Below are positions 3,342 to 32,176 of a stretch of DNA of 36,872 bases, in pieces. The notes beneath the pieces were generated by a model, which saw only the letters and a program-made list of their open reading frames with translations, was not told where the DNA came from and did not search any database. The position numbers were made by a program, and so were the translations under genes. This stretch comes from Oligosphaeraceae bacterium (GTDB lineage Bacteria > Verrucomicrobiota > Lentisphaeria > Oligosphaerales > Oligosphaeraceae): positions 1-36,872 of the forward strand of contig JAAYYJ010000293.1 of the NCBI GenBank assembly GCA_012515455.1, given 5' to 3'. Position 1 is the stretch's first letter; every line of letters begins with the position of its first letter.

Positions 3342-4910
3342 ATGTGCATTGCAAAATCCCCGCTAATTTTCCTGTCGTTGGTACTCATCCTTTGCCCCCT
3401 GCGCCTCCCTGCGCAGTTTGAGGATATCCCGGCGGAAATCCGGCAGGCATGGCTGAGCGCCTATCTTCTGATTGAGAAAGCCGAGCAGCAGAGCAGCGCC
3501 GGAGATGTCTTAGGCGCGCTGGATTTATTGCGCCAGTCCTGGGAAACCCTGTCGCGGCTCCAGAAGGAACACCCGCGCTGGAACCCGGGCATGCTCGCTT
3601 TTCGGATGGAGAACTGCCGCCAGAAGATTCTAGCGCTGGAAGGCCGGGAGCAGGGCGCGATCGCAGCCATGCCCCGGGAGGAGCTGGAGAAATTTCTGCG
3701 CTCCGCCCGGGAGCGCCTGCGCCTGGCTCACCCCCTGAGCCAGGCATCACCGGTCAGCTCTGCCCCGGACTCGCCAGTGCCGCTGCCCGCCCAGATGGAT
3801 TTCTTGACTCGCCTGAATGCGGAAAAACAGCAGTACCAGGCCGAGAACAGCGATCTCAAGACCAGCCTGCAGGAGCTCAAGGCCAAGCTGGAACAGACTG
3901 AATTGCAGGCGCAGGCCTGGCGGCGCACTGCCGCCGGCATGGACAAGCTGCAGCAGGAAATCACCGCCCTCAAAGCCCAAAACCAGGAACTGGAGAGTTT
4001 CCGGCAAAAAGCCGTGCTTGAACTGCACGAACAGAGCAGCAAGGTCCATACCCTGACCCAGGAACTCAGCGGGGCCAAGACCGCACTGACAGAACTGCGC
4101 CGCACGCCTCAGCCCGACCTCTCCGGGGACAAAATTGCCGCAGCGCAACAGGCTGCCGCACAACAGGTCGCCGCCGCACAGCAGGCTGCGGCCCAGCAAG
4201 TCGCCGCCGCCAAGGCCGAATCCAGCCGTCTGGTCCAGGAACAATGGTCGGCCGCGCAGCAGCAGCTCAAAGACCTGCAAGGGCAGCTCCAGGGCTTACG
4301 CAACGAGCTCGAACAGGTGAAGGCGGCAGAACTGCGGCGCGAGAAGGAAAACCAAGCCCTGGCGGATTTTATTCAGAAGGCCATCAGTTTGGAACAAAGC
4401 GGGGAATGGTCCGCAGCAGCCAAACTCTGGCAACGCATTGCCAGCGCCCGCCCTGGTCACGTCCAGACTCTAGCCCGCATTCCGGTACTGCTGCAGCAGG
4501 CCGGCGAACCGACCCAGGCCGGACTGGCCCTCAATAATTATCTCAACCAGGCGGCCGGAGACTTCAATACTCTCCTCAGCTTGGGAGAATCCTGCCTGCA
4601 GGCTAATCAGCCGGCCTACGCCATCACATTCCTGAGCTGGTGCGCGCTCCTCCAGCCCGAAAACGTCCAAGCCAAAGCCGCACTGGGAATGGCCTACGCC
4701 GCCGCCGAAATGCCGCAGGCAGCCGAGAACTATTTGCGGCAGGCCCTGGCCGCGGACGCTGATTACCAGCCGGCCCTGACGGCGCTGGCCATGATCATGG
4801 CCACCGCCAAGCCGCCCCGGACGGCAGAAGCCAAGCAACTCTATCAGCGTGCCCGCACCGCCGGCGCCGGCGCTAACCCGATCCTAGAGGAATTGCTGCA
4901 GGAGCCATAA
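3342..4910 (+). CDS. Secreted TPR / coiled-coil protein
   Basis: 522 aa. It has an N-terminal signal-like segment (IFLSLVLILCPLRLPAQ) and a central Q/A/E/L-rich heptad-like region that includes AAAQQAAAQQVAAAQQAAAQQVAAAK. The C-terminus carries TPR-like repeats (..GMAYAAAEMPQAAENYLRQALAADADYQPAL..). Confidence 0.7.
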   Translation: MCIAKSPLIFLSLVLILCPLRLPAQFEDIPAEIRQAWLSAYLLIEKAEQQSSAGDVLGALDLLRQSWETLSRLQKEHPRWNPGMLAFRMENCRQKILALEGREQGAIAAMPREELEKFLRSARERLRLAHPLSQASPVSSAPDSPVPLPAQMDFLTRLNAEKQQYQAENSDLKTSLQELKAKLEQTELQAQAWRRTAAGMDKLQQEITALKAQNQELESFRQKAVLELHEQSSKVHTLTQELSGAKTALTELRRTPQPDLSGDKIAAAQQAAAQQVAAAQQAAAQQVAAAKAESSRLVQEQWSAAQQQLKDLQGQLQGLRNELEQVKAAELRREKENQALADFIQKAISLEQSGEWSAAAKLWQRIASARPGHVQTLARIPVLLQQAGEPTQAGLALNNYLNQAAGDFNTLLSLGESCLQANQPAYAITFLSWCALLQPENVQAKAALGMAYAAAEMPQAAENYLRQALAADADYQPALTALAMIMATAKPPRTAEAKQLYQRARTAGAGANPILEELLQEP

Positions 4911-5256
4911 TGCACCGCGGTCAGGCCAAGTCGTCGCTCTGACAGCGGTAGTTCTGCAGCACCGTCTTCCCGGCCTGAACGGTCGACGGAATCATCGGAC
5001 AGCGCAAATCATAGCGGTGCACAGTAAGGCAGACGTCCCCCAAGGACGGGGTGGGGACCAGTTGGTCGGATATCGGCCTACAGTACCTAAGCACCGGCAG
5101 GCGTGCATTCTCTGCACCGCAGATTGACCATACTCAACCTCAGCAGCGGAGGCAATCACCAGCTTACCGATAAATGCGGTCACCCTTGCTACTGCAGTCA
5201 GCCGCAAAACAGCGTTTGGTCTTGATCTGCGGCCTGGGATTATGCCCTTGCCCCGC

Positions 5257-6828
5257 TTACAACGCCAAGCCGAGTTCCTCGTCCAGGGAATCCAGGGCGG
5301 TTTTCTCCTCTTTGGCCATGTTCTTGGGCATCTTGTAAGTGGGCAGATAACGATAATAGACCTGCAGGCTCAGACAGCAGAGGGCAGTGGTATACCAGCG
5401 GTCATAGGCTCCGGGATTGCCGACCTTGCCGGTCTTGGGGTCAGGCTTCAGACCAGGCGGACATTCCCAATAACCTTCTTCTTTCTGATTGCTGACCACC
5501 ATCGGCGCAAATTTCTCGTTCCACTTGCGCCACGAGGACTGACCAGTATGGAACATCACCTGGGTTTCGTAATACCAGTGATACATCGGATTGGAATGTG
5601 CACCGCTGATCAGCAGTTTGGGATTTGACCAGATGATGGTGGGCAGATGCGTTTCCACGATCAGCTTGGAGACCGTCTTGGCTTCCTTGCAGCCGCCCTC
5701 GCCCAACAGCTGCAGACAAAGGGTGCCCGCGCCCTGCATGCCCCAGCTGCCGCCGCCAGGGGAAGCATAGCCCATGGGCTTGGTGGCGTTAGTCTTGGAA
5801 TAGGCGACTTGTTTGATGAAGCTGATCGCCCTGTCGATGGCTTTGTCTAAATCAGCGACACTGGCGCCCGAGACAAAACCGGCCTTCATGGCCTGGAACT
5901 GCCAGCCCGCGACCGACAAATCCCAGCGCTCGGCCTTGGCATAACTGTAATCGTAACCGCCGCTCTTCTGCTGGCCGTCAACCACCAGAAACAACGCCTT
6001 GTCCATGGCAGGCTTCAGATTCGGCAGTTTGGTCATGCCGTACGCTTCCGAAAGGGCATACGCCACAATGCCGTTGGTGTATGGCTCAATCTTGGGCTTC
6101 CCACCCGTTGTCTCAGGCAGACTCTCGACGTGCCGAATCAGGTACTGCATGGCATTCTGAACCGTCTGCCCATATTCTTCGCTGGTCGGCGTCTCACCAT
6201 GGGCCAGATAAGCCAGCAGACAGAGACCAGCCATGGCCGGACGCGAGCTGGGCCCCCAGGAGCCATCACTGTTCTGCGTCTTCTTCAGCCATTGCAAGGC
6301 CTTCACCACTGCCCGCTCGGTTGCGTCATTGCCGCCGAATTTGCGCCGCTGCTGGGTCCTCCCCTCGTTGGTGCGCCCGCCATACAGAGAAGACAACTTC
6401 AGGGGTGAATCATTGGCCCGGATATCCAGCACATCGGAAAAATTCATGGCGTCGTCAGTGGAGGCCATCTTGTCGCTGAAATCATCTACCGAGGCCACGT
6501 CGGTGACCTGCGCATCGCTGACGATATCCGGCCGTTCCACCGTGGGCACCACTTCCTCCGCGACCTCTTCGAGCTTCTCGAGCTTCTCGAGCTCCTTCTG
6601 GTCCAGCTCCTTGACCTCCAGTTCCTTCATTTCCAGCTCAATGGAGGCCCGGGTGGCTGTCGCTTCGGGCTCATAGAACAGAATTACCGAGCCCATCAGC
6701 AGGATATGCACCACCAGGGAAATCACCGGACCGATCATGCTCTCGAGCATTTTCCGGTGCTGGTACTCTGCCAGGATGGCATCGGCATCAAACGCCTGAA
6801 TCGGGCTTTGTTGGTTGTATTCTTCCAT
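5257..6828 (-). CDS. Membrane-anchored protein with a TonB/TolA-like N-terminal topology and a C-terminal QW-repeat alpha/alpha-toroid (prenyltransferase/squalene-cyclase-like) domain
   Basis: 523 aa. It has a single TM segment (MIGPVISLVVHILLMGSVILFY) followed by an E/K-rich spacer (ELEMKELEVKELDQKELEKLEKLEEVAEEVV). The C-terminal domain carries a QW-type motif (ALQWLKKTQNSDGSWG) and aromatic-rich toroid-like repeats. It is the last gene of the ExbB/ExbD operon. Confidence 0.75.
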   Translation of the reverse strand: MEEYNQQSPIQAFDADAILAEYQHRKMLESMIGPVISLVVHILLMGSVILFYEPEATATRASIELEMKELEVKELDQKELEKLEKLEEVAEEVVPTVERPDIVSDAQVTDVASVDDFSDKMASTDDAMNFSDVLDIRANDSPLKLSSLYGGRTNEGRTQQRRKFGGNDATERAVVKALQWLKKTQNSDGSWGPSSRPAMAGLCLLAYLAHGETPTSEEYGQTVQNAMQYLIRHVESLPETTGGKPKIEPYTNGIVAYALSEAYGMTKLPNLKPAMDKALFLVVDGQQKSGGYDYSYAKAERWDLSVAGWQFQAMKAGFVSGASVADLDKAIDRAISFIKQVAYSKTNATKPMGYASPGGGSWGMQGAGTLCLQLLGEGGCKEAKTVSKLIVETHLPTIIWSNPKLLISGAHSNPMYHWYYETQVMFHTGQSSWRKWNEKFAPMVVSNQKEEGYWECPPGLKPDPKTGKVGNPGAYDRWYTTALCCLSLQVYYRYLPTYKMPKNMAKEEKTALDSLDEELGLAL

Positions 6829-6885
6829 CTGTCACCTCAACAGCAGGGCGAGAACAGAGTAGCGTGCTTCCCCGGCAAGGCAGGA

Positions 6886-7275
6886 TCAGCGCAGAGTCAC
6901 CACATTCAGCTTGGTCAGACCAGCCCCCTGGCAGAGGTCCAGTACATTCACCAAATCCTGGGCTTTGGCACTGATGCTGACCTTGATGATCACCGTCAAA
7001 TCCGGGTCCCGGAAAGAATTCAGGGTGGTCTCCAGAGTGGCCAGGGACACACTGGTCCCGCGCAGGGAATACTGCCCGTCATAGACCTCGACTTCCAGCA
7101 GCTGCGGTTTGCTCTCGCTGGCTTTGGCACTGCCCGGTGTCGGCAGATTGATCGCCAGATGAGCCTCGGAAATCTCTTCCTTCTGGGTGATGATAAAATA
7201 AATCAGCAGCAGGAATACCACGTCGATCATGGACGACATCGGCACCGCTAGCTTGTCATCGTACTTTTTCCGCAT
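6886..7275 (-). CDS. exbD: ExbD/TolR-family biopolymer transport protein (paralog 2)
   Basis: 129 aa. The N-terminal TM carries the conserved Asp (PMSSMIDVVFLLLIYFII). Size and periplasmic domain are typical of the family. Confidence 0.85.
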   Translation of the reverse strand: MRKKYDDKLAVPMSSMIDVVFLLLIYFIITQKEEISEAHLAINLPTPGSAKASESKPQLLEVEVYDGQYSLRGTSVSLATLETTLNSFRDPDLTVIIKVSISAKAQDLVNVLDLCQGAGLTKLNVVTLR

Positions 7276-7297
7276 TTGTCGCTCCCCTTGCGCTGCC

Positions 7298-7708
7298 TCA
7301 ACCCTCTACCATGGCGGCAATTCTGACCCGGTACAAACCGACTCTGGCAGCACGCTGCATCACCCGGTCGATGTAATCAAATTTCGTGTTCCCATCACAG
7401 CGGATCAGTAGAGGCAGTGAGTCTCCGGCCTGGATTTTCAAGGCCAGGAGCATCTGCTCCAGCTGGTTCAAAGTAACCGGCTGCAAGGCGATATTGATCT
7501 GCCCGCGCTGATTGACATTGATGGTGACCATGCGGGGGTCATTGGTTTCAACCGCCGGAGACTTCTTGGCCTCAGCGAGGATAATGCTCTCATCGACCAT
7601 ATCCTTGTCAACCGCAGCGGTCACCACGAAGAATATGATCAGGAGAAAAACGATATCAATCATGGAGGTGATTGGCGTCTCCAGATCGTCGCCGCCTCGA
7701 TTGCGCAT
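7298..7708 (-). CDS. exbD: ExbD/TolR-family biopolymer transport protein (paralog 1)
   Basis: 136 aa. The TM carries the conserved Asp (PITSMIDIVFLLIIFFVV), and the gene lies directly downstream of the ExbB-like gene. Confidence 0.85.
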   Translation of the reverse strand: MRNRGGDDLETPITSMIDIVFLLIIFFVVTAAVDKDMVDESIILAEAKKSPAVETNDPRMVTINVNQRGQINIALQPVTLNQLEQMLLALKIQAGDSLPLLIRCDGNTKFDYIDRVMQRAARVGLYRVRIAAMVEG

Positions 7709-7768
7709 ATCTGTACCCTTTATTTAGATGGCCGGAAAACACTGCCCGTCCCAATCCGGACTGCGCCC

Positions 7769-8518
7769 TTATTCTTCCACTTCGGCTTTGCGCAAGGGCT
7801 TGATCAATTCCAGCACCGTGGCTTCCGATTCCAGAATCAAGCGTGTGGCGTTGTTGCGGAAATAAGTATAGAACAGCAGGGCGGGGACGGAAATCAGCAG
7901 CCCCACGCAAGTAGTCCAGAGCGCGGTGGAGATAGAGTTGGCCAACACCCGGGCTTTGGCTGCGCCGGTGGCGCTGGCCAGACCGGCAAAGGCCAGTACC
8001 ATGCCGACCACGGTGCCCATCAGGCCCAGCATAGGCGCAATCTGCCCGCAGATGTTCAGCAGGCCCACCCGCTGCATCAGCTTCTCGGTCTCCAAATCAG
8101 TACGGGAGGAGACCGCCTGCTGCACCACATCGTAGCCGTCATAGATATTGTCGAAGGCTTCCTTGAGGATGTTCGACAACGAGCCGGGATTGGCCTGGCA
8201 GGTGGCAATGGCAGTCTCGAGGTCGCCATTGGCCAAAGCCTGGCGCACTCCATCCACCAGCAGTGCCGGAATCAGCTTGTCTCGGCGCACGACCATGAAG
8301 CCATCGATGGCGAACCACAGCATCGCGAAGGAAGTGGCAAAGATACCGATCCAGATAATCAGATTGATGATGCTGCCGCCATAGAGGATATTCCACATGC
8401 CGCTGCCGGCAGGTGCGGCCTCCGCCTCAGCCGCAGCAGCGGCAGCTTCCTGAGCCATCACTCCGAGCTGCAGGACAAAAAAACTCAGCACGGCGATTTT
8501 TGCAGACAACGCTTTCAT
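7769..8518 (-). CDS. exbB: MotA/TolQ/ExbB-family proton channel
   Basis: The family signature is present (..APMLGLMGTVVGMVLAF..ISTALWTTCVGLLISVPALLFYTYF..). I prefer the internal ATG at 8518 (MKALSAKIAVLSFF...) because AAGGAGAG lies about 5 nt upstream; the ORF-track start is 8560. The N-terminus has a signal-like segment plus an Ala/Glu-rich stretch. Confidence 0.85.
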   Translation of the reverse strand: MKALSAKIAVLSFFVLQLGVMAQEAAAAAAEAEAAPAGSGMWNILYGGSIINLIIWIGIFATSFAMLWFAIDGFMVVRRDKLIPALLVDGVRQALANGDLETAIATCQANPGSLSNILKEAFDNIYDGYDVVQQAVSSRTDLETEKLMQRVGLLNICGQIAPMLGLMGTVVGMVLAFAGLASATGAAKARVLANSISTALWTTCVGLLISVPALLFYTYFRNNATRLILESEATVLELIKPLRKAEVEE

Positions 8519-12400: not shown

Positions 12401-13500
12401 GAGAACTTGCTGCAGGCATCGTGTTCGGTGATGGCCTGATTCTGGAAGGCGCTGTCGGGATACTCGTCGAGCAGTTTTTCCAGATATTTGGCTGCGCCCC
12501 GGATTTGCACCTTGGCCTTGTCTGTCTCGCCCTTGGCATAAGTTGTCACGGCGTGACTGGCGAAAGCAATAGCCTTGTAGTACATTGCTTCGACCAGTGG
12601 CGACTTGGGGGAATTCTCCAGCCCCTGCATCTTGGCCAGCTCCTCCAGACGCGGGGTGATCATATCAATGGCTTTGACGGCATTGGCAAAATCATCGATT
12701 TTGCCAATATCCTTGGCTTTTTCCTTTTCTTTAGGCAGCAGCGGCAGAAGCTTGCCCCGCCCGCGGATAATGTATGACCGCGCCAGCTGCACCGCACCAG
12801 CAGCAGCCACCCCGTCACGGATAAACTGCAGGTTCTCCAAACCTTTGATGGCTGCAGCCAGGGCCTTGTCATCAATCTTGCCGCTGGACTTCAGCTTATT
12901 CTCCTCGTTGTCAATGGCGGTCTGAAGCTTCAGAAATTCCATCTGCCGTTCATCGACCGCGCCCTTGATGTTGGCCAGCAACTCCAGAACCTTGGCCGCC
13001 TCGGCCGGCTTGTTCATCGATTTCAGGACGTAGTTGTAGATCATCACCGCCTGTTTGAATTTGTTGGCGTCGGATTTCTTGTTCGAAGCCGGCTGCTGAT
13101 TTTTGGCAAAATATTCTTTATAGACCTTGGCTGCCTCAGGCCATTGCTTGCGGGCGGCAAAAACCTGCGCCTGCAACAGCAGCACTTCGCCCGCCAAGGG
13201 GGAGTTCTTGGGAATAGCCTTCAAGGCGGTATCGGCGTCTTTACTGCGTCCGACGGTATAGAAAATACGGGCCTTCTCCAGATTGATCAGGTCTTTCTGC
13301 TCGGGATATTTTTTCTGCATCTGCCCGAGCTGCATCTCAGCGTAGTCATTGAATTCAATGCGGCTGAGCTCCTGCAGGAAAGTCAAATCCAGTTCGAATT
13401 CATCGATGGCCAAGAGCAGGCTGCTGCAGAACAACATCAGCACCAAGAAAAAAGACCACCGCCTGGAGGACTTTCCCGCTGTCAATATCTTATTGCCCAT
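9409..13500 (-). CDS. Giant (1363 aa) signal-anchored TPR, long coiled coil, TPR protein
   Basis: It has an N-terminal hydrophobic segment (WSFFLVLMLFCSSLLLA) and TPR-like repeats on both sides. The central E/K/Q/A-rich heptad-like segment is about 360 residues (roughly nt 10370-11460). It is the first gene of the ExbB/ExbD operon. Confidence 0.8.
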   Translation of the reverse strand: MGNKILTAGKSSRRWSFFLVLMLFCSSLLLAIDEFELDLTFLQELSRIEFNDYAEMQLGQMQKKYPEQKDLINLEKARIFYTVGRSKDADTALKAIPKNSPLAGEVLLLQAQVFAARKQWPEAAKVYKEYFAKNQQPASNKKSDANKFKQAVMIYNYVLKSMNKPAEAAKVLELLANIKGAVDERQMEFLKLQTAIDNEENKLKSSGKIDDKALAAAIKGLENLQFIRDGVAAAGAVQLARSYIIRGRGKLLPLLPKEKEKAKDIGKIDDFANAVKAIDMITPRLEELAKMQGLENSPKSPLVEAMYYKAIAFASHAVTTYAKGETDKAKVQIRGAAKYLEKLLDEYPDSAFQNQAITEHDACSKFSEAKFGEKLELKQSGSAAIVSASLEKADAFLQQKNYQSAFQPCLEALRLGRTGKRVPEVGLRLVMCLAEMDDLNGADALLDYLSAVAPRAEGTADAALRFGVMLWTKAQNEKKPSLKTEYEGRALSAFDKFVDAAPSHPKASEIAFTVAENAFAQASRLAERANQAANASDKAKAHEEAQAAFRSAIPKYQRMVEVFGTFPTGVRSQYKLAWCYDSVGEREKAIEYFLNYFESESNPRYANDRLQAKFQGAYLLIYSDHPLDAVGHFEQLQKVLSDKDSGFDLKSEVAGRLREDCLSFLPWAYDLAAERYRPEMTVAKNRRKVLQDRIKAFEETIAQGQAEQEQAKLSLNSLDENLAALQNSYAEMLLDFTALATQQIEAVSEDMAKMSEAEKQVHRQTLQSSIIKRIADLEVQKKNELVGNNLTQEKRAADAVQEKAKIEKRLARLNDEAKEISERIAELKKRGQESAAQAVALRKAQEDADKALTLADSERQAAQELKSQMESRVDDAKGKEKENLQKELDQLAEAATKMNELFQAAFVRQKEASSEQTQAEIRNLERAVVELAEDVTAAEAEALRVKNDLALAKIEAQIVEAEQLAAGKTLSLNRVYGGILEKAVAERKTSQDELKRAIEAAFQAEDARKKLLSEKIAVRGEYLAQRAENSRAGIAAASKILEEVTAGNEPTKKEFDSLKSKAVEGFGKFLQQHPSSKAPENMSRLGSIYLFDIEDPVKASDVLRRLAAEFPKDPATQKALFMLGRAQAENGNLEEAAKAFEKLLGKPEEIALANLYYVSDICLKAGLPIPASVANREILKRADDPKHPDAPAITRGQKERASFALGQSLASNKRYAEAIKILEGILAANERSNFFFEIKFILAEAKANIDPPDWAGLEQDLYDVMMFATSPLMRNQASCLYADAILKSNDPSKRNAALSNYQIVLLADPKIPENRELIERALVGSAKLYSLAGEQEKVNEMVKRYKTLFSGGKYLAEISRLAN

Positions 13501-13595
13501 CTATGCGTCCTTTGCATTATGCCAATACTGAGCCGGCAGAAAAAATGCTACGCATCGACAAACAACTCTGTGCGAGTACTGAATAACGATAGAGA

Positions 13596-13674
<79 letters not shown>

Positions 13675-14260
13675 ACTTCTTTCTCAAATTGCCAGACAGA
13701 CAGGGCCAACTCTATGCACCAACTCTGTCAGCACATATAATGTAGCTCGTCTTTCGCTAACAACAACCCCGCACAGCGAAATTTATCGCCAACAAAGCAT
13801 TTTTCGCCTTTTCTGCCACCATCTCCAGCGTGAACACCGTTGCGGCAGGAGACAAAAAACACCAACGGACATAGTATAATCATCATGGCGGAAAATGTCA
13901 AGAAAGAAAAACAAATTATCTCGCTAGGGAATCAATTATTGCCTGATTATAGCCAATACAACGCCCGCGGGCAGGACATGCCCGGGATTCCTTGTCCTTT
14001 ATTGGTCAAAGGATGGAAATTCAAAGAGTTATGGGTAAAATGCGTTTCGGCCCTTGTCGGACCCCCAAAAACAGCTACATTTTGTCCGCATCAACTCGGT
14101 GGGCTCTCAGCCCACCCTACCGAGGGGGGCCTCCAGCCCTAATATTGACGCGCGCGCGAGATGCAAATCAGGGCCGGGACCACGCGGAAACAACCCATTT
14201 TCTGCCAGGAGCGAGTCCCCGACATGGCGAGTCCCCAGGGACAGGGGGGTGCCCCGGCCA

Positions 14261-14814
14261 AGTGGTACAGATGGGGCTGCAGCGGGTCAACAGGACTGGC
14301 GGTGGCAGGGCCGCCGGTGGCACAGATGGGGCCGCAGCGGCCAACAGGACTGGCGGCGGCAGGGTCGCCGGTGGCACAGATGGGGCCGCAGCGGGATAAC
14401 AGGACTGGCGGCGCCAGGGCCGCCGGTGGTACAGATGGGGCCGCGGCGGGATAACAGGACTGGCGGCGCCAGGGCCGCCGGTGGTACAGATGGGGCCGCA
14501 ACGGGATAACAGGACTGGCGGCGCCAGGGCCGCCGGTGGCACAAATGGCGCCGCAACGGGATAACAGGACTGGCGGCGCCAGGGCCGCCGGTGGCACAAA
14601 TGGCGCCGCAATGGGTCAACAGGACTGGCGGCGGCAGGGCCGCCGGTGGCACAGATGGAGCCGCAACGGGTTAACAGGACTGGTGGCGCCAGGGACGCCG
14701 GTGGCACAGATGGGGCCGCAACGGGATAACAGGACTGGCGGCGCCAGGGCCGCCGGTGGCACAAATGGCGCCGCAATGGGTCAACAGGACTGGCGGCGGC
14801 AGAGCCGCCGTGGG
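14261..14814. repeat. Tandem array of ten head-to-tail 55-bp units (one unit is 54 bp), no spacers
   Basis: Unit starts are at 14261, 14316, 14370, 14425, 14480, 14535, 14590, 14645, 14700 and 14755. The consensus is GGTGGCACAGATGGGGCCGCARCGGGATAACAGGACTGGCGGCGCCAGGGCCGCC. ORFs are open in all frames on both strands across the array. Confidence 0.9.
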
Positions 14815-14888
14815 CGGTTGATTGGCGCCCCAGCGGCAGCAATTGCAGGCGCGGCTCGGTCGCCGCCGCTGTCCCCGGAGGATATTTT

Positions 14889-16085
14889 TCACGCCCGGGT
14901 CTGCGCCAGGATCACCGCTGCGTTGTTGCCGCCGATGCCAGCGGAATTCACCAGTGCGGTGGAGAATTCCTTGCAGCGGGGCTGGCCGGCCAGACTGTCC
15001 AGGAAGGCGCAATCGGGGTCGATTTCCTGCAGATTCAGGGTGGGCGGAATAATACCATGGCGCATCGCCAGCAAGGTGATGACGGCCTCCGCCAGACCGG
15101 CTGCGCCTAGCAGATGCCCGAGCTGGGATTTGTGGGCCGCGACGGTCAGCCCGGACAGGCGCTCTCCGAAGATGTTCCGCAGTGCGGCCGCTTCGGTCTT
15201 GTCATTCGCGACGGTGCTGGTGGCGTGGGCGCAGACATGCTCAATGTCAGCCGCGTCCAGGCCAGACTGCCGCAGAGCCTCGTGCATGACTTCCCGCGAG
15301 CCCTCGGCTTCGGGCCTGGGGGCAGTAAGATGGAAGGCGTTGTTGTTGGTGGCCGCACCGAGCAAGTACTGCGCCGGGGCAGCCGACGCAGCCCGGTCGT
15401 CCTCACGCTCCAGCAGCACCGCCGCCGCTCCTTCACTGAAGATGGTGCCCGAGCGCCGCCGGTCGAAGGGACGCATGGTATCACTGGTTATGGTGCGCAA
15501 GTTGTGCAGGCCGCACCAGCAGAACTCACTCAGGATGTCGAAGGCGATGACCAGCACCCGCGCCGCCCGGCCAGTGCGGAGGATATCCCAGCCGGCGGCC
15601 AAAGCCGCGGTCCCTGAGGCGCAGGAGAAGGACAGCTGCTGACAGCCGCCGGCACAGCCCAGCGAGCGGGCCAATCCCGGCAGGAAATCCTCCCAGTGCT
15701 GCTGTGAAGCCAGTGAGACCGCCCCGAGGTCCTGCTTCTCCCGCCAGAGCCACTCCTGGGTCTCCCAGGCTCCAAAATTGCTGGCCAGCACCAATGCCAG
15801 GGCGCTGTCCGGCCGGGCCGGAGCCCCCTCCGGCAATCCCAGGGCCTGCCGGCCGGCCTGCTTAGCCAGTGCGCCGGCTAGCTCATCCTCGGGATAAGCA
15901 TTGCGCAGAAACTCATCCTCGACTTCGGACAGCATCCCCGCCTTTTGCTGCTGATAAGGGGCCGCGGGAAATCTCCATATCGGGCGGAAGGCGTCCTGCC
16001 CGGCACACATGCGCTGGTATACCTCCTCGGGATTGCGCCCCAAGCTGCAGCACAAACCTTGACCCACAAAACGTATTTTTGCCAT
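14889..16085 (-). CDS. Beta-ketoacyl-[ACP] synthase (FabF/FabB-type condensing enzyme, Cys-His-His)
   Basis: 398 aa. The active-site Cys lies in FSCASGTAAL, with His motifs CAHATST and HKSQLGHLLGAAG. The C-terminus NSAGIGGNNAAVIL is typical of the family. AGGAG lies about 9 nt upstream. Confidence 0.85.
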   Translation of the reverse strand: MAKIRFVGQGLCCSLGRNPEEVYQRMCAGQDAFRPIWRFPAAPYQQQKAGMLSEVEDEFLRNAYPEDELAGALAKQAGRQALGLPEGAPARPDSALALVLASNFGAWETQEWLWREKQDLGAVSLASQQHWEDFLPGLARSLGCAGGCQQLSFSCASGTAALAAGWDILRTGRAARVLVIAFDILSEFCWCGLHNLRTITSDTMRPFDRRRSGTIFSEGAAAVLLEREDDRAASAAPAQYLLGAATNNNAFHLTAPRPEAEGSREVMHEALRQSGLDAADIEHVCAHATSTVANDKTEAAALRNIFGERLSGLTVAAHKSQLGHLLGAAGLAEAVITLLAMRHGIIPPTLNLQEIDPDCAFLDSLAGQPRCKEFSTALVNSAGIGGNNAAVILAQTRA

Positions 16086-16103: not shown

Positions 16104-17378
16104 TTATTTTTGCGGTCCATCCGGACCGGCCACTTCATGCTTGCCTGGTTCTTGCGCCGGTGGCCACCAGCCGCGCCGCAACGCATCCGCTCCGAGCTGC
16201 TGGCGCAGACGATCCACCGCCTGATCGAGACAGGCGTTGCGCCGCTGCTCCTGAGCGGGCATGGCCACGCCGGGCTCATCTGCGAACAACAACTGTTGCT
16301 GCGGCCCCGGCACAGGCTCCTGCCCCGGGGCACAGAGTGCGCTGACACCAAACCCAACCAGTCGGACCGGCTCCCCGGGACTGAACTGCGACCACAGTGC
16401 TCCGGCACAATGCAGCAGCACCCGGTCCGCCTGACTGCGGGGCCGGATCGGCATCTGTCGGCTCACGGTGCGAAAATCCTGATACCGCAGTTTTACCGTT
16501 GCGGTCCCGGCCAGCAGTCCGGCCTGGCGCAGGCGTTGCCCCACGACCTCGGCCAGTCTCCACAAGGCCATGCGGACCTGTTCAGGGTCCCGGCAATCGA
16601 CTGGGAAAGTCTCCTCGTGGGAGATAGATTTCTCCTGCGCTTCCTCCGGCTGCACCGCACGGTTGTCCCAGCCGTGCGCCAGGGCCTTGATCTGCTCTCC
16701 TGAGGTATTCCCCAGCATCCGCCTCAGGGCTTCGACGCTGGTTTTCTGCAGGTCGCCAATCCGGCGCAAAGAGTATTTCGCCAGCACTTGTGCTGTCTTC
16801 GGCCCGACGCCCCAGATTTTACCCACCGGCAGCGGGGCCAGAAAGGCCTGCACCTCGGCCGGGTCCACCGGCACCACCGTGAGGCCGTCCGGCTTATGCA
16901 AATCACTGGCCAGCTTGGCCAGGAACATATTCGAAGCCACGCCGACGGAGGCGGTTAGTCCGGTGGTCGCCCTGATCCGCTCCTTCAGCTGCCGCGCTGT
17001 CTCGACTGGGTCCGCAGGCAGGCCATGGACATGGGATAGGTCCAGGAAGGCTTCGTCAATCGAGGCCGGCTGCACGCATGGGGTGAATGCCCGCAATACC
17101 CCCATGACCTGGGCCGAGAGCTCGGCGTAGCGCTCATAGCGTCCGGGAACAAAAATGCCCTGGGGGCAGAGGCGGAACGCGGTCCTTGACGGCATGGCCG
17201 AATGGACCCCGAAACGGCGCGCTTCATATGAGCAGGTGGATACCACGCCCCGCTGATCGGGAGCCGCCCCGACGATCACCGGCCGGCCCCGCCATTCGGG
17301 GTGATCCAGCTGCTCCACCGAAGCGAAGAATGCATCCAGATCGAGATGGAGAATGTGATTGCTTGCGGCTGTGTTCAT
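16104..17378 (-). CDS. dinB: DNA polymerase IV (Y-family translesion polymerase)
   Basis: 424 aa. The N-terminus ILHLDLDAFFASVEQ and the motif VVSTCSYEARRFGV are present, and a clamp-binding-like QQQLLF lies about 65 residues before the C-terminus. Confidence 0.9.
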   Translation of the reverse strand: MNTAASNHILHLDLDAFFASVEQLDHPEWRGRPVIVGAAPDQRGVVSTCSYEARRFGVHSAMPSRTAFRLCPQGIFVPGRYERYAELSAQVMGVLRAFTPCVQPASIDEAFLDLSHVHGLPADPVETARQLKERIRATTGLTASVGVASNMFLAKLASDLHKPDGLTVVPVDPAEVQAFLAPLPVGKIWGVGPKTAQVLAKYSLRRIGDLQKTSVEALRRMLGNTSGEQIKALAHGWDNRAVQPEEAQEKSISHEETFPVDCRDPEQVRMALWRLAEVVGQRLRQAGLLAGTATVKLRYQDFRTVSRQMPIRPRSQADRVLLHCAGALWSQFSPGEPVRLVGFGVSALCAPGQEPVPGPQQQLLFADEPGVAMPAQEQRRNACLDQAVDRLRQQLGADALRRGWWPPAQEPGKHEVAGPDGPQK

Positions 17379-20662: not shown

Positions 20663-21211
20663 ATGATGAAAAAGCTCCTGACTCTGCTGACCATCAGCGC
20701 CCTGGGTACGGTAATGGCCCAGGAAGCCGCTCCCGCCGCTCCCGCCGCCAAACCGGCCGAAGCCGCCAAACCGGCCGAAACCGCTAAGCCGGCCGTCGCC
20801 CGCCCGCAACGCAACCGTGGCGGCGAGCGCAATATGAACCGTGGCGGCGGTGGGGACAACAAGGAATTTTTTGTGAACCGGATGCGTGACGTATCGGCCA
20901 AACTGGTCAAGAAATACGACGCTGATGCTGACGGCACCCTTAATGACGCTGAGAAGGCCGCCCTGCAAAAAGACCTGAAGACGGTGGAGGAATTCACGGA
21001 GATCGCCAACATCTTCCAGATCCGCCAGCTGCAGGCTGCCGACAGTGACGGCGATTTCAGCCTCAGTGCTGAAGAGGTTGAAAAAATTGACATGCAGAAG
21101 ATCCGCCAAAGCATCATGCCTCGGAACCGCCCTCAGCCCCCCAGCCGGCGTGAACGCCCGAACCGCCCCCAGCCAGCTCCGGCGGCGCCTGATGCCCCCG
21201 CGGCACAGTAA
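20663..21211 (+). CDS. Secreted EF-hand calcium-binding protein
   Basis: 182 aa. It has a signal peptide, an AAKPAE-type repeat and two EF-hand loops (DADADGTLNDAE, DSDGDFSLSAEE). The tail is Pro/Arg-rich. Confidence 0.7.
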   Translation: MMKKLLTLLTISALGTVMAQEAAPAAPAAKPAEAAKPAETAKPAVARPQRNRGGERNMNRGGGGDNKEFFVNRMRDVSAKLVKKYDADADGTLNDAEKAALQKDLKTVEEFTEIANIFQIRQLQAADSDGDFSLSAEEVEKIDMQKIRQSIMPRNRPQPPSRRERPNRPQPAPAAPDAPAAQ

Positions 21212-30850: not shown

Positions 30851-32176
30851 ATGAAATTACAAAACATTTTGCTGGCCGTTTGCACTGGATTGCTGCTCAC
30901 ACTCTCTGCCACTGCGGCGGCCGACTGGCAACAGGAGTTTTTGGGTGCGGAGCTGCGTGATGCCAATGGCGGGACGGTTCCTGTCGAGCGCCTTAAGGGG
31001 AAGATTGTGGGGCTCTATTTTTCTGCCCATTGGTGCCCCCCCTGCCGGAAATTCACGCCTGAGCTGGTCAAGTTCTACGACCAGTTGCAACAGCAGAAGC
31101 AGCCCTTCGAAATTGTCCTGGTGAGTTCGGACAAATCGGAAAAAGAGATGTACAATTACATGCAGGAGACCAAGATGAAATGGCTGGCCCTGCCCTATGG
31201 CAGACCAGAAAAGAAAAGCCTGAGCCAGAAGTTTTCGGTCACCGGCATCCCTGCACTGGTAATCCTGGATGCTACGGGACAAACCATCACCCGGGAAGGT
31301 CGGGCCGAGGTCACCACAAACAGCGCCGGTGCCTTTGCCAAGTGGGAAAAGACCGCCAGCAAAGAAGCAGCGCCTGCCAGCAAAGAAGCAGCGCCTGCCA
31401 GCAAAGAAGCAGCGCCTGCCAGCAAAGAAGCAGCGCCTGCCGGCGAGGACCGCCCGGCCATTTCCGGGGCTGAGGTCGGGGTCTGGACCCAGGATTTCGC
31501 GGCGGCTCAGGCTCTGGCGGCGGAAAAACAGCTGCCGCTCCTCCTCAATTTCACCGGCAGCGACTGGTGTGGCTGGTGCAAATTGATGGACCGCAACGTC
31601 TTTTCCCAGGCCGAATGGAAACAGTGGGCGCAAAAGAACCTCGTCTTGGCCTACATCGATGCGCCGCGGGATAAAAGCTTGGTACCGGAGAAATTCGTAG
31701 CCCGCAACCAGCAGCTCGCACAGCAGTATTCGGTTTCCGGCTTCCCTACCTACATCCTGCTCAAAGCCGATGGGCAAAGTGTGATCGAGCGCTTGGGGGC
31801 CTCCCGTGAAGCTACGGCACAGAGCTTCATCCTGGACCTGAAGAAGGCCTTGCTGCAGACCCGCCCCGGGGGTGTGAAAGCACTGCTCAGCCCTGAGCAG
31901 GTTGCGGCGTTGGAGCAAGCCGAAACCGCCCTGGCAGCGGCACAGAAGCCTTTCGACGAAGCGTTGGTTCAAGCCAGGGAGGAATACCAGCGGTTGAACC
32001 TGGCCAAACAGCAGGCTCAGGACGAGGCAGCCAGCAAAGCCGCCCAGGAGGCACTGGACAAATGGAATGCCGAAATCACCCCCAAAATTGAAAAGCTGCA
32101 TGCTGCTGTTCAGTCGGCCAATGCCAGTATCGCTGCCCTGTACGAAATTGCCGTCCAGAAGGCTGAAGAAAAATAG
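30851..32176 (+). CDS. Secreted tandem thioredoxin-fold protein with a C-terminal coiled coil
   Basis: 441 aa with a signal peptide. Domain 1 is nucleoredoxin/tryparedoxin-like with WCPPC. A 4x ASKEAAP linker follows. Domain 2 is a thioredoxin-fold with SDWCGWC. The last ~100 aa are heptad-like. GGAG lies upstream. Confidence 0.8.
   Translation: MKLQNILLAVCTGLLLTLSATAAADWQQEFLGAELRDANGGTVPVERLKGKIVGLYFSAHWCPPCRKFTPELVKFYDQLQQQKQPFEIVLVSSDKSEKEMYNYMQETKMKWLALPYGRPEKKSLSQKFSVTGIPALVILDATGQTITREGRAEVTTNSAGAFAKWEKTASKEAAPASKEAAPASKEAAPASKEAAPAGEDRPAISGAEVGVWTQDFAAAQALAAEKQLPLLLNFTGSDWCGWCKLMDRNVFSQAEWKQWAQKNLVLAYIDAPRDKSLVPEKFVARNQQLAQQYSVSGFPTYILLKADGQSVIERLGASREATAQSFILDLKKALLQTRPGGVKALLSPEQVAALEQAETALAAAQKPFDEALVQAREEYQRLNLAKQQAQDEAASKAAQEALDKWNAEITPKIEKLHAAVQSANASIAALYEIAVQKAEEK
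31355..31438 (+). repeat. Perfect 4 x 21-bp in-frame tandem repeat (GCCAGCAAAGAAGCAGCGCCT) encoding ASKEAAP x4
   Basis: Read directly from the sequence. The four units are identical and sit in the inter-domain linker of the thioredoxin protein. Confidence 0.95.

Follow-up and report, generated by a model that had tools for sequence, protein, structure and literature searches.

The window analysed here is the whole of contig JAAYYJ010000293.1, a 36,872-bp housekeeping chromosomal stretch from a Lentisphaerota/Victivallales-like bacterium. Its subject of interest is a tandem array of 55-bp units located between the stop codon of a beta-ketoacyl-ACP synthase gene (KAS) and the promoter of a tRNA-Pro gene, which among known kinds is nearest to the bacterial minisatellite, or variable-number tandem repeat (VNTR). 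The features on which the description draws are the following.

14261-14814, no strand assigned: tandem array of ten head-to-tail units plus 5 nt (Tandem Repeats Finder, unit table and nhmmer)
14370-14424, plus strand: representative A-type unit, predicted by folding to form a self-contained hairpin as plus-strand RNA
14851-14867, no strand assigned: partial copy, in inverted orientation, of the unit's 3' part, close behind the KAS stop codon (repeat-pair search)
14005-14873, no strand assigned: lineage-specific segment of ~870 bp holding the array, with approximate boundaries (short blastn matches and alignment)
14889-16085, minus strand: KAS, 398 aa (Pfam PF00109 and PF02801)
13873-13901, minus strand: promoter TTGACA-17-TATACT facing tRNA-Pro (promoter scan, 11/12 matches to consensus)
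13597-13674, minus strand: tRNA-Pro, anticodon CGG (ARAGORN; Rfam RF00005, 63.3 bits)

Read along the minus strand, the order is DinB (16104-17378), KAS, a 74-nt gap, the array, the promoter, tRNA-Pro and a 1363-aa TPR protein. The array lies downstream of KAS on the same transcriptional side, with 74 nt between the KAS stop codon and position 14814, a distance that agrees with the original prediction, which had been made from the letters of this DNA alone. On its other side it is upstream of the tRNA-Pro promoter by ~360 nt, and a further ~200 nt separate this promoter from the tRNA. The further claim that the window has no other long non-coding gap has been checked only roughly. KAS homologues bear names from metagenome-assembled genomes of Lentisphaeria/Victivallales, and the remaining large open reading frames (ORFs) are of a housekeeping nature, namely ExbB, SecDF, an HrpB helicase, the guanylate and cytidylate kinases (Gmk and Cmk) and a QPRTase, accompanied by a GH88 glycosyl hydrolase, a Wzy-type protein and a thioredoxin-like protein. 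Among window ORFs of at least 200 aa, Pfam recognized no partition, replication-initiator, integrase, transposase, Cas or toxin domain; no ParB was found in the same set, and the ParA family PF10609 gave only a sub-threshold P-loop match in the guanylate kinase. A search of 13000-15500 with Rfam 15 at E<=1 returned the tRNA and two weak sub-threshold matches outside the array, with none in the array itself.

Tandem Repeats Finder places the repeat at 14262-14810 with a period of 55, 10.0 copies, 91% matches, 0% indels and a score of 839, and the unit table resolves it into nine 55-bp units, one 54-bp unit and 5 nt. Unit 1 spans 14261-14315; unit 2 (14316-14369) is the 54-bp unit, short by one G, and thereafter a unit follows every 55 bp until 14809, where the final 5 nt begin. 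The spacings measured on the invariant anchor CAGGACTGG are 54 once and then 55 eight times, in agreement with the ten-unit array with its single short unit that was originally described. The unit consensus is GGTGGCACAGATGGGGCCGCAACGGGATAACAGGACTGGCGGCGCCAGGGCCGCC, and the plus strand of the array is G-rich (G 44%, C 28%, A 19%, T 9%). A core 16-mer taken from the unit has ten matches in the array with at most one mismatch and a single match elsewhere in the window with three mismatches; dinucleotide-shuffled versions of the window contain a mean of 0.48 core matches at three mismatches, and 0 of 100 shuffles reach 11. A profile of the unit run over the window with nhmmer recovers ten full units and zero copies outside the array. 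Both the count of ten copies and the order of the units are read from a single assembly, that of the window.

The units fall into two variants in the order BBAAAABAAB, in which ATAAC occurs with GCGCCAG (variant A) and TCAAC or CCAAC with GCGGCAG or GTGGCAG (variant B), unit 8 having TTAAC instead of ATAAC. Two short palindromes are found once per unit, one of which, CTGGCG-G-CGCCAG, is perfect in 5 of the 10 units, has a single mismatch in unit 8 and is not intact in any of the four B units. In all of these respects (consensus, order, linkage of the variants, and the deviating unit 8 with its broken palindrome) the unit table reproduces what had been read from the letters. A different picture emerges for the claim that this pattern points to conservation at the DNA or RNA level, as the co-variation joins positions 27-28 to position 45, which are unpaired with each other, touches no base-paired positions at all, and belongs to an array that is absent in every relative examined. 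It looks like a set of unit haplotypes descended by block duplication and not like structural covariation. Each unit also holds three runs of at least three G with loops of 7, 20 and 18 nt, an arrangement that does not form a canonical G-quadruplex motif.

The inverted copy at 14851-14867 can pair with 14792-14808 of the last unit over 17 nt at 88% complementarity with a 42-nt loop; no T-run follows it, and the terminator scan found no terminator-like site there. Degenerate extra units in the flanks were considered and rejected, given that nhmmer found none in either flank, that the left one does not look like the unit and that the right one resembles it only weakly (169 of 2000 shuffles score equally well).

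A scan for the unit pattern in 185,579 species-representative genomes gave 18 single matches, about the chance expectation and none of them tandem, while the same scan gave one match within a coding region among metagenome contigs and zero matches among viral contigs. As far as searched, the unit is unique to the KAS/tRNA-Pro locus and is not dispersed, and the concern raised at the outset that it might prove to be a scattered REP-like element (REP, repetitive extragenic palindromic) found no support. The array can nevertheless be followed beyond this assembly in three contigs from other samples (L001-L003), which have a 100% identical KAS gene and protein, share an identical 81-nt junction on the KAS side and carry between 0.7 and 3.8 units (0.7, 1.0 and 3.8) before the contig ends, in all three cases inside the array. 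The same lineage is present in samples SRR25904991, JGI 3300028241 and JGI 3300026163. Short-read contigs are expected to end in this way within a multi-copy repeat, and the presence of the junction and units in three other-sample contigs indicates that the array is real, is inherited in the lineage and breaks short-read assemblies. The left-hand junction was sought through contigs reached via the neighbouring TPR and ExbB genes, which end near tRNA-Pro, short of the array. No paper linking Victivallales with tandem repeats was found in the literature.

Comparison of the units with one another gives an indication of how the array has changed. Interior units 3, 4, 5 and 9 are only 1-3 nt apart from one another, units 6 and 9 are 2 nt apart, and the most diverged units are at the tRNA-side edge, where unit 1 stands 7-10 nt and unit 2 stands 5-8 nt away from the other units. 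The edge on the KAS side is not diverged, with unit 10 only 1 nt from unit 7. Alike interior units with a diverged edge are expected of unequal exchange, and the pattern also suggests recent block duplication. From its KAS side, L001 reads units 10, 6, 5' (unit 5 with one T-to-G change) and 4, which is the window order minus units 7-9, or 165 bp; exactly this order would arise if units 7 and 10, which are nearly identical, had recombined. The window is the only contig to span the array. In its head-to-tail direct repeats, its several copies and a unit length within 10-100 bp, the array has the form of a minisatellite or VNTR, and the rapid turnover typical of this class is seen in the alike interior, the diverged edge and the five related lineages without an array.

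These five lineages were recovered at the same locus, four with ~90% KAS nucleotide identity (L023; L037-L040; L041/L042; L043) and one, L025, with 81% KAS protein identity. All five retain the order of KAS, promoter, leader, tRNA-Pro and TPR protein, and the unit profile finds no unit in any of them. The promoter is conserved in L023, L025, L037 and L043 and marks the start of the conserved part of the spacer, with good alignment from the promoter onwards and failure of the alignment upstream of it. Where the window has its insert of ~870 bp, L023 has 11 nt between the same flanking homologies, as given by collinear short blastn matches to window 14887-14874, 14004-13982 and 13955-13936. Presence in the lineage of the window and absence in its relatives imply by parsimony that the array was gained in the former. 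The non-array parts of the insert match nothing but L001-L003. Insertion of a transposable element was rejected as the origin of the segment, with no terminal inverted repeats or target duplication at its approximate boundaries and with flanks unmatched elsewhere.

What the relatives hold in place of the array differs from one to another. Those at ~90% identity have an imperfect palindromic element of ~150 bp in the KAS/tRNA-Pro spacer, built of 9-mers (GTATAGGAC and its inverse), which is located at 3900-4060 in L023 and 11330-11480 in L037 and is also present in L041-L043. A second copy occurs in a different intergenic region of L037 (1332-1541), and the element looks like a dispersed family similar to REP sequences or miniature inverted-repeat transposable elements (MITEs) that is missing from the window. 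In L041, an insertion sequence (IS) with a DDE_Tnp_1_4 transposase and visible terminal inverted repeats (CCTGAATCCGTGAAG...) occupies 5416-7110, inserted exactly in the -10 box of the upstream promoter of tRNA-Pro, and the spacer of L025 is unrelated sequence. Judged by these alignments, the spacer appears to be plastic, accepting different inserts in sister lineages: a minisatellite, a palindromic element and, in one, an IS. Elsewhere in L037 an intergenic 9-bp repeat (CCCGTCCGA) runs for 20.4 copies at 5834-6017, and intergenic tandem repeats may be common in this Lentisphaerota group. On the other side of the promoter, the stretch 13675-13901 on the minus strand is conserved in relatives of both 91% and 81% KAS identity, and its predicted consensus fold has 5 pairs changed on both sides. 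It matches nothing in Rfam and could represent a leader or small RNA transcribed together with the tRNA, or else contain a second promoter.

An origin from KAS itself was also considered. Homologues P0013, P0025, P0037 and P0087 are ~630-660 aa in length and carry a C-terminal KAS-like extension of ~240 aa, a long form that is frequent in Victivallales/Lentisphaeria, and the clade of the window has a form of 395-399 aa. The array as a remnant of this C-terminal domain was rejected when tblastn of the domain against the window returned nothing; it is further disfavoured by the nearest relatives, which likewise have 395-399 aa yet are without the array.

The array is non-coding, as had been proposed. 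One minus-strand frame is open through the whole array as part of a 224-aa ORF (14168-14842), the stop codons per frame within the array being 2/3/1 on the plus and 2/2/0 on the minus strand. In this ORF the GC content at codon positions 1/2/3 is flat at 0.71/0.72/0.70, in comparison to 0.56-0.72 / 0.37-0.51 / 0.68-0.78 for nine real window genes, and the codon log-likelihoods of its three frames all lie below zero (-0.24, -0.21 and -0.05), in comparison to +0.39 to +0.83 for the true frames of the real genes. The 37 departures from the unit consensus are spread 17/11/9 over codon positions 1/2/3 with no excess at the third, and the unit differences at lags 1-4 (means of 4.6, 5.9, 4.9 and 5.8) show no clear three-unit periodicity. 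The 224-aa ORF belongs to no Pfam family, and neither it nor a 151-aa plus-strand ORF has any homologue among 5.8 billion proteins.

An exhaustive phmmer search of 1.84 billion representatives gave three matches of 26-28% identity with E-values inflated by repeat-on-repeat alignment, two of which, on detailed inspection, proved to be ORFs that are themselves repetitive, their period being near 55 aa. P0126, the best match, was rejected as a relative; it is the three-frame translation of an unrelated 80-copy 55-bp satellite in contig L044 (30% GC), the unit of which reaches a best circular identity of 23/55 with the array unit, a value attained by 10% of shuffles, and the likeness is a coincidence of period. 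The satellite in question spans 4100-8502 of this long-read contig, where the gene caller made of it a 667-aa protein with a 55-aa period, thus displaying a route by which such arrays enter protein databases.

The most unusual property of the unit is its predicted folding. As plus-strand RNA, each unit is predicted to form a closed hairpin, which in the representative A-type unit has an outer stem GGUGGC/GCCGCC, an inner stem GGGGCCGC/GCGGCGCC and two invariant G-U pairs. Taken in the register GGTGGC...GCCGCC, the A-type unit folds at -27.9 kcal/mol with a z-score of -3.45 and the B-type unit has a z of -3.2, and the corresponding minus-strand values are -0.95 and -1.36. A register-free null, in which each unit was shuffled and then tripled (400 shuffles), gives z -3.4 for the plus strand, with 1-2 of 400 shuffles folding as well, and z -0.25 for the minus strand; folding of the whole array gives z -8.8 and -1.4, respectively. 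Of the cells, 96.2% are paired on the plus strand and 80.2% on the minus strand. Compensatory double changes are absent among the units, and the structure was derived from the same sequences. DNA energy parameters return the same strand asymmetry in a weaker form.

Hairpin-forming repeats are classic slippage substrates, and in models of E. coli repeats a hairpin on the nascent lagging strand favours expansion. The cumulative GC skew of the window falls throughout and most neighbouring genes are on the minus strand; from the falling skew, which covers 37 kb only, the hairpin-forming plus sequence would be placed on nascent lagging-strand DNA. As far as the fold predictions go, the hairpin may mainly be the property that makes the sequence prone to slippage, which would also leave room for a role as plus-strand RNA.

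Taken together, the array is probably a young, lineage-specific, hairpin-prone minisatellite (VNTR) in the plastic KAS/tRNA-Pro spacer, most likely of mechanistic origin, and probably not an element conserved for a function. A GC-rich self-complementary stretch of ~55 bp would first have been duplicated, and amplification may then have followed by replication slippage on hairpins together with unequal homologous recombination of misaligned units. The same processes would homogenise the interior units, let the tRNA-side edge units drift and add or remove units or blocks, and the array would be nearly neutral. Its present-day effect is most likely a by-product, namely a 554-bp structured and strand-skewed spacer between KAS and the tRNA-Pro promoter; Pfam indicated no dedicated partner gene among the large ORFs of the window.

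Several observations weigh against this interpretation. Its confinement to one locus covers the 36.9-kb contig and the sets scanned, with further copies in the source genome possible, and the copy-number polymorphism comes from one short-read contig, L001, which is possibly a collapsed assembly. The units are ~9% apart, indicating an array that did not arise just now and has persisted for a while. The plus-strand hairpin beats the expectation from composition (1 of 400), and none of the 400 shuffles is as asymmetric between the strands. At paired positions there are six one-sided changes, each of them C-to-U opposite G; they keep the pairing on the plus strand only and could reflect selection on a plus-strand RNA or on a single-stranded DNA structure.

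These last points would be accommodated by a plus-strand RNA antisense to the 3' end of KAS, acting for example as a hairpin sponge for an RNA-binding protein, a precursor of unit-length RNAs or a KAS antisense regulator, a model that is unlikely on balance. In its favour are the closed hairpin formed by each unit on this strand only, the one-sided C-to-U changes just described and a weak promoter-like site at 14014-14041 on the plus strand, ~220 nt upstream of the array; this site, however, matches at only 9/12 positions and no terminator was found. The structure has neither compensatory changes nor an Rfam match to support it, the relatives are all without the array and therefore offer no orthologous covariation, no processing or toxin gene is adjacent, and as the asymmetry also arises with DNA parameters, RNA is not required for its explanation. 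In a more specific form, the folding model would describe a recently born strand-specific RNA of ten ~55-nt hairpins with G-U pairs, multivalent as a protein sponge or scaffold or as a precursor of unit hairpins, antisense to the KAS 3' end and confined to a single lineage, which is improbable. Transcription in the opposite direction has also been weighed, in which the C-rich minus strand (44% C, 28% G) would serve KAS as a 3' untranslated region (UTR) or insulator, its stem-loops stopping or slowing read-through or shielding the mRNA 3' end. Read-through into the tRNA-Pro promoter would perhaps be curbed via Rho, or protection would be given as by REP sequences and bacterial interspersed mosaic elements (BIMEs) in E. 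coli. In favour of this are the position of the array, 74 nt past the stop codon on the transcribed side with an independent promoter further downstream, the failure of the terminator scan to find an intrinsic terminator from KAS to that promoter, a C/G ratio of ~1.6 over 554 nt in the minus-strand RNA, and the 17-bp stem that links the last unit with the region just past the stop codon. Nevertheless, the relatives do without the array and have quite different sequences at the same place, minus-strand folds are no better than shuffles (z -0.25 to -1.4) and neither role needs ten copies. Rho loads on unstructured RNA, and the predicted minus-strand RNA is still heavily paired. A role of the array as 3' UTR or insulator is likewise unlikely.

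An array of protein-binding sites, whether centromere-like (sopC, parS), operator, nucleoid-protein or iteron in kind, would have a dimeric protein on CTGGCG-G-CGCCAG or on the junction palindrome GCCGCC/GGTGGC every 55 bp. The two palindromes per unit and the direct-repeat layout shared with sopC are what recommend it, and it is rather improbable in view of the absence of a ParA/ParB, Rep, initiator or regulator gene from the 36.9-kb contig, the 13-bp palindrome being imperfect in half of the units, the absence of the array from relatives and the frequency of short palindromes in 70% GC DNA; furthermore, 55 bp corresponds to 5.2 helical turns, which would put the sites on different faces of the helix. 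Of the three candidates named in the original prediction, the hypervariable minisatellite fits best and the protein-binding array is disfavoured, with the small or long RNA gaining some weight from the plus-strand hairpin. A repeat protein with a 55-aa super-period encoded by the 224-aa ORF has the open minus-strand frame as its attraction. It is already contradicted by a unit length of 55 that is not divisible by 3, by the codon statistics and spread of substitutions, and by database searches in which the matches among representatives are only other satellites translated in three frames, leaving it next to no credence; protein support for this ORF, which had been named as the observation that could overturn the non-coding reading, came neither from homology nor from codon-phase substitutions. 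It is very unlikely, lastly, that an assembly artefact has distorted a real array, such that its length and unit order in the contig are wrong and it has another copy number in reality. The three independent short-read contigs all end in the array and L001 differs in unit order, as such an error would predict; the junction and units are nonetheless reproduced in three other samples, and an error of this kind would change the count only and not the nature of the array.

In comparing the minisatellite reading with known systems, the closest parallel is found in the mycobacterial interspersed repetitive unit (MIRU)-VNTR loci of Mycobacterium tuberculosis, which have units of 40-100 bp and are intergenic and copy-number polymorphic (Supply et al. 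1997, 2000, via PMC5056196). The array likewise consists of ~50-bp head-to-tail repeats in one orientation, intergenic on a GC-rich chromosome, with whole-unit gain or loss in the form of a probable 3-unit difference. MIRUs are a family over 41 loci with no obvious palindromes and with small ORFs tied to the flanking genes (PMC5056196). The array unit, on the other hand, is found at a single locus, with no second copy in the 36.9-kb contig or related loci, is strongly self-complementary and has no coding signal, the 74-nt gap after the KAS stop and the lack of a coding signature giving no flank-linked small ORF. The intergenic tandem repeats of Borgs are lineage-specific, absent from closest relatives and often end contigs, with unit lengths mostly not divisible by three and partial repeats flanking the arrays; they are perfect, A-rich and pervasive across Borg genomes (bioRxiv 10.1101/2022.05.18.492195). 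The array shares with them its restriction to one lineage, its absence in close relatives, its tendency to end contigs, a unit length not divisible by three and a flanking partial repeat, and differs in being 91% matched, G-rich on one strand, on a bacterial chromosome and the only intergenic array in the 37-kb contig.

The other systems considered are more distant. The sopC site of plasmid F has 12 direct repeats of 43 bp, each with an inverted repeat bound by SopB, and the analogy drawn with it in the original prediction extends to the lack of spacers between the direct repeats, a unit of similar length and one short inverted repeat per unit. It does not extend further: the contig is a housekeeping chromosome with no sopA/sopB-type (ParA/ParB-type) gene, only half of the units have a perfect palindrome and relatives show no conservation of the array. 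The ToxI-type antitoxin RNAs of type III toxin-antitoxin systems form arrays of 5.5 x 36 nt and resemble the present array as spacerless short-unit tandem repeats that could fold and be cut into unit-length RNAs. In contrast to these, what lies downstream of the array is KAS in antisense on the plus strand and the promoter and tRNA-Pro on the minus strand, and no ToxN/AbiQ-like gene follows on either strand by the ORF list and Pfam, the padloc defence library not having been searched. The CRISPR class does not apply to an array in which the units abut without spacers and no ORF of at least 200 aa has a Cas domain. REP/BIME elements of enterobacteria are 20-40 nt in length and occupy hundreds of dispersed sites in alternating orientation, with REP-associated tyrosine transposases (RAYT) (PMC3184786). 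Like them, the array is intergenic, follows a stop codon and consists of GC-rich units that can form hairpins; unlike them, it has a 55-bp unit at one locus, unique in the sets searched, in direct orientation throughout, with no transposase in the window. There are also no terminal inverted repeats, as would be seen in a MITE, at the boundaries of the insert.

If the array is indeed a minisatellite, it would provide a high-resolution VNTR strain marker for an uncultured Lentisphaerota lineage and would be a known break point of short-read assemblies of this organism. The locus is also of use as an example of one spacer that takes up different inserts in sister lineages. Transcription of the array, if it occurs, would make it a clear example in nature of a structured RNA born by minisatellite or repeat expansion, that is, a de novo non-coding RNA.

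Other repeats of the window are of a different kind. Three further tandem repeats, at 31355-31441, 20744-20795 and 4137-4210, have units of 21, 18 and 33 bp, respectively, all divisible by 3, and overlap long ORFs, unlike the 55-bp intergenic array; the one at 31355-31441 has 4.1 perfect copies and overlaps the thioredoxin-like ORF at 30851-32176. Between the array and the promoter, the unique flanking sequence has an alternating (CG)5 run (GCGCGCGCG) at 14144-14162, and alternating CG runs can adopt Z-DNA.

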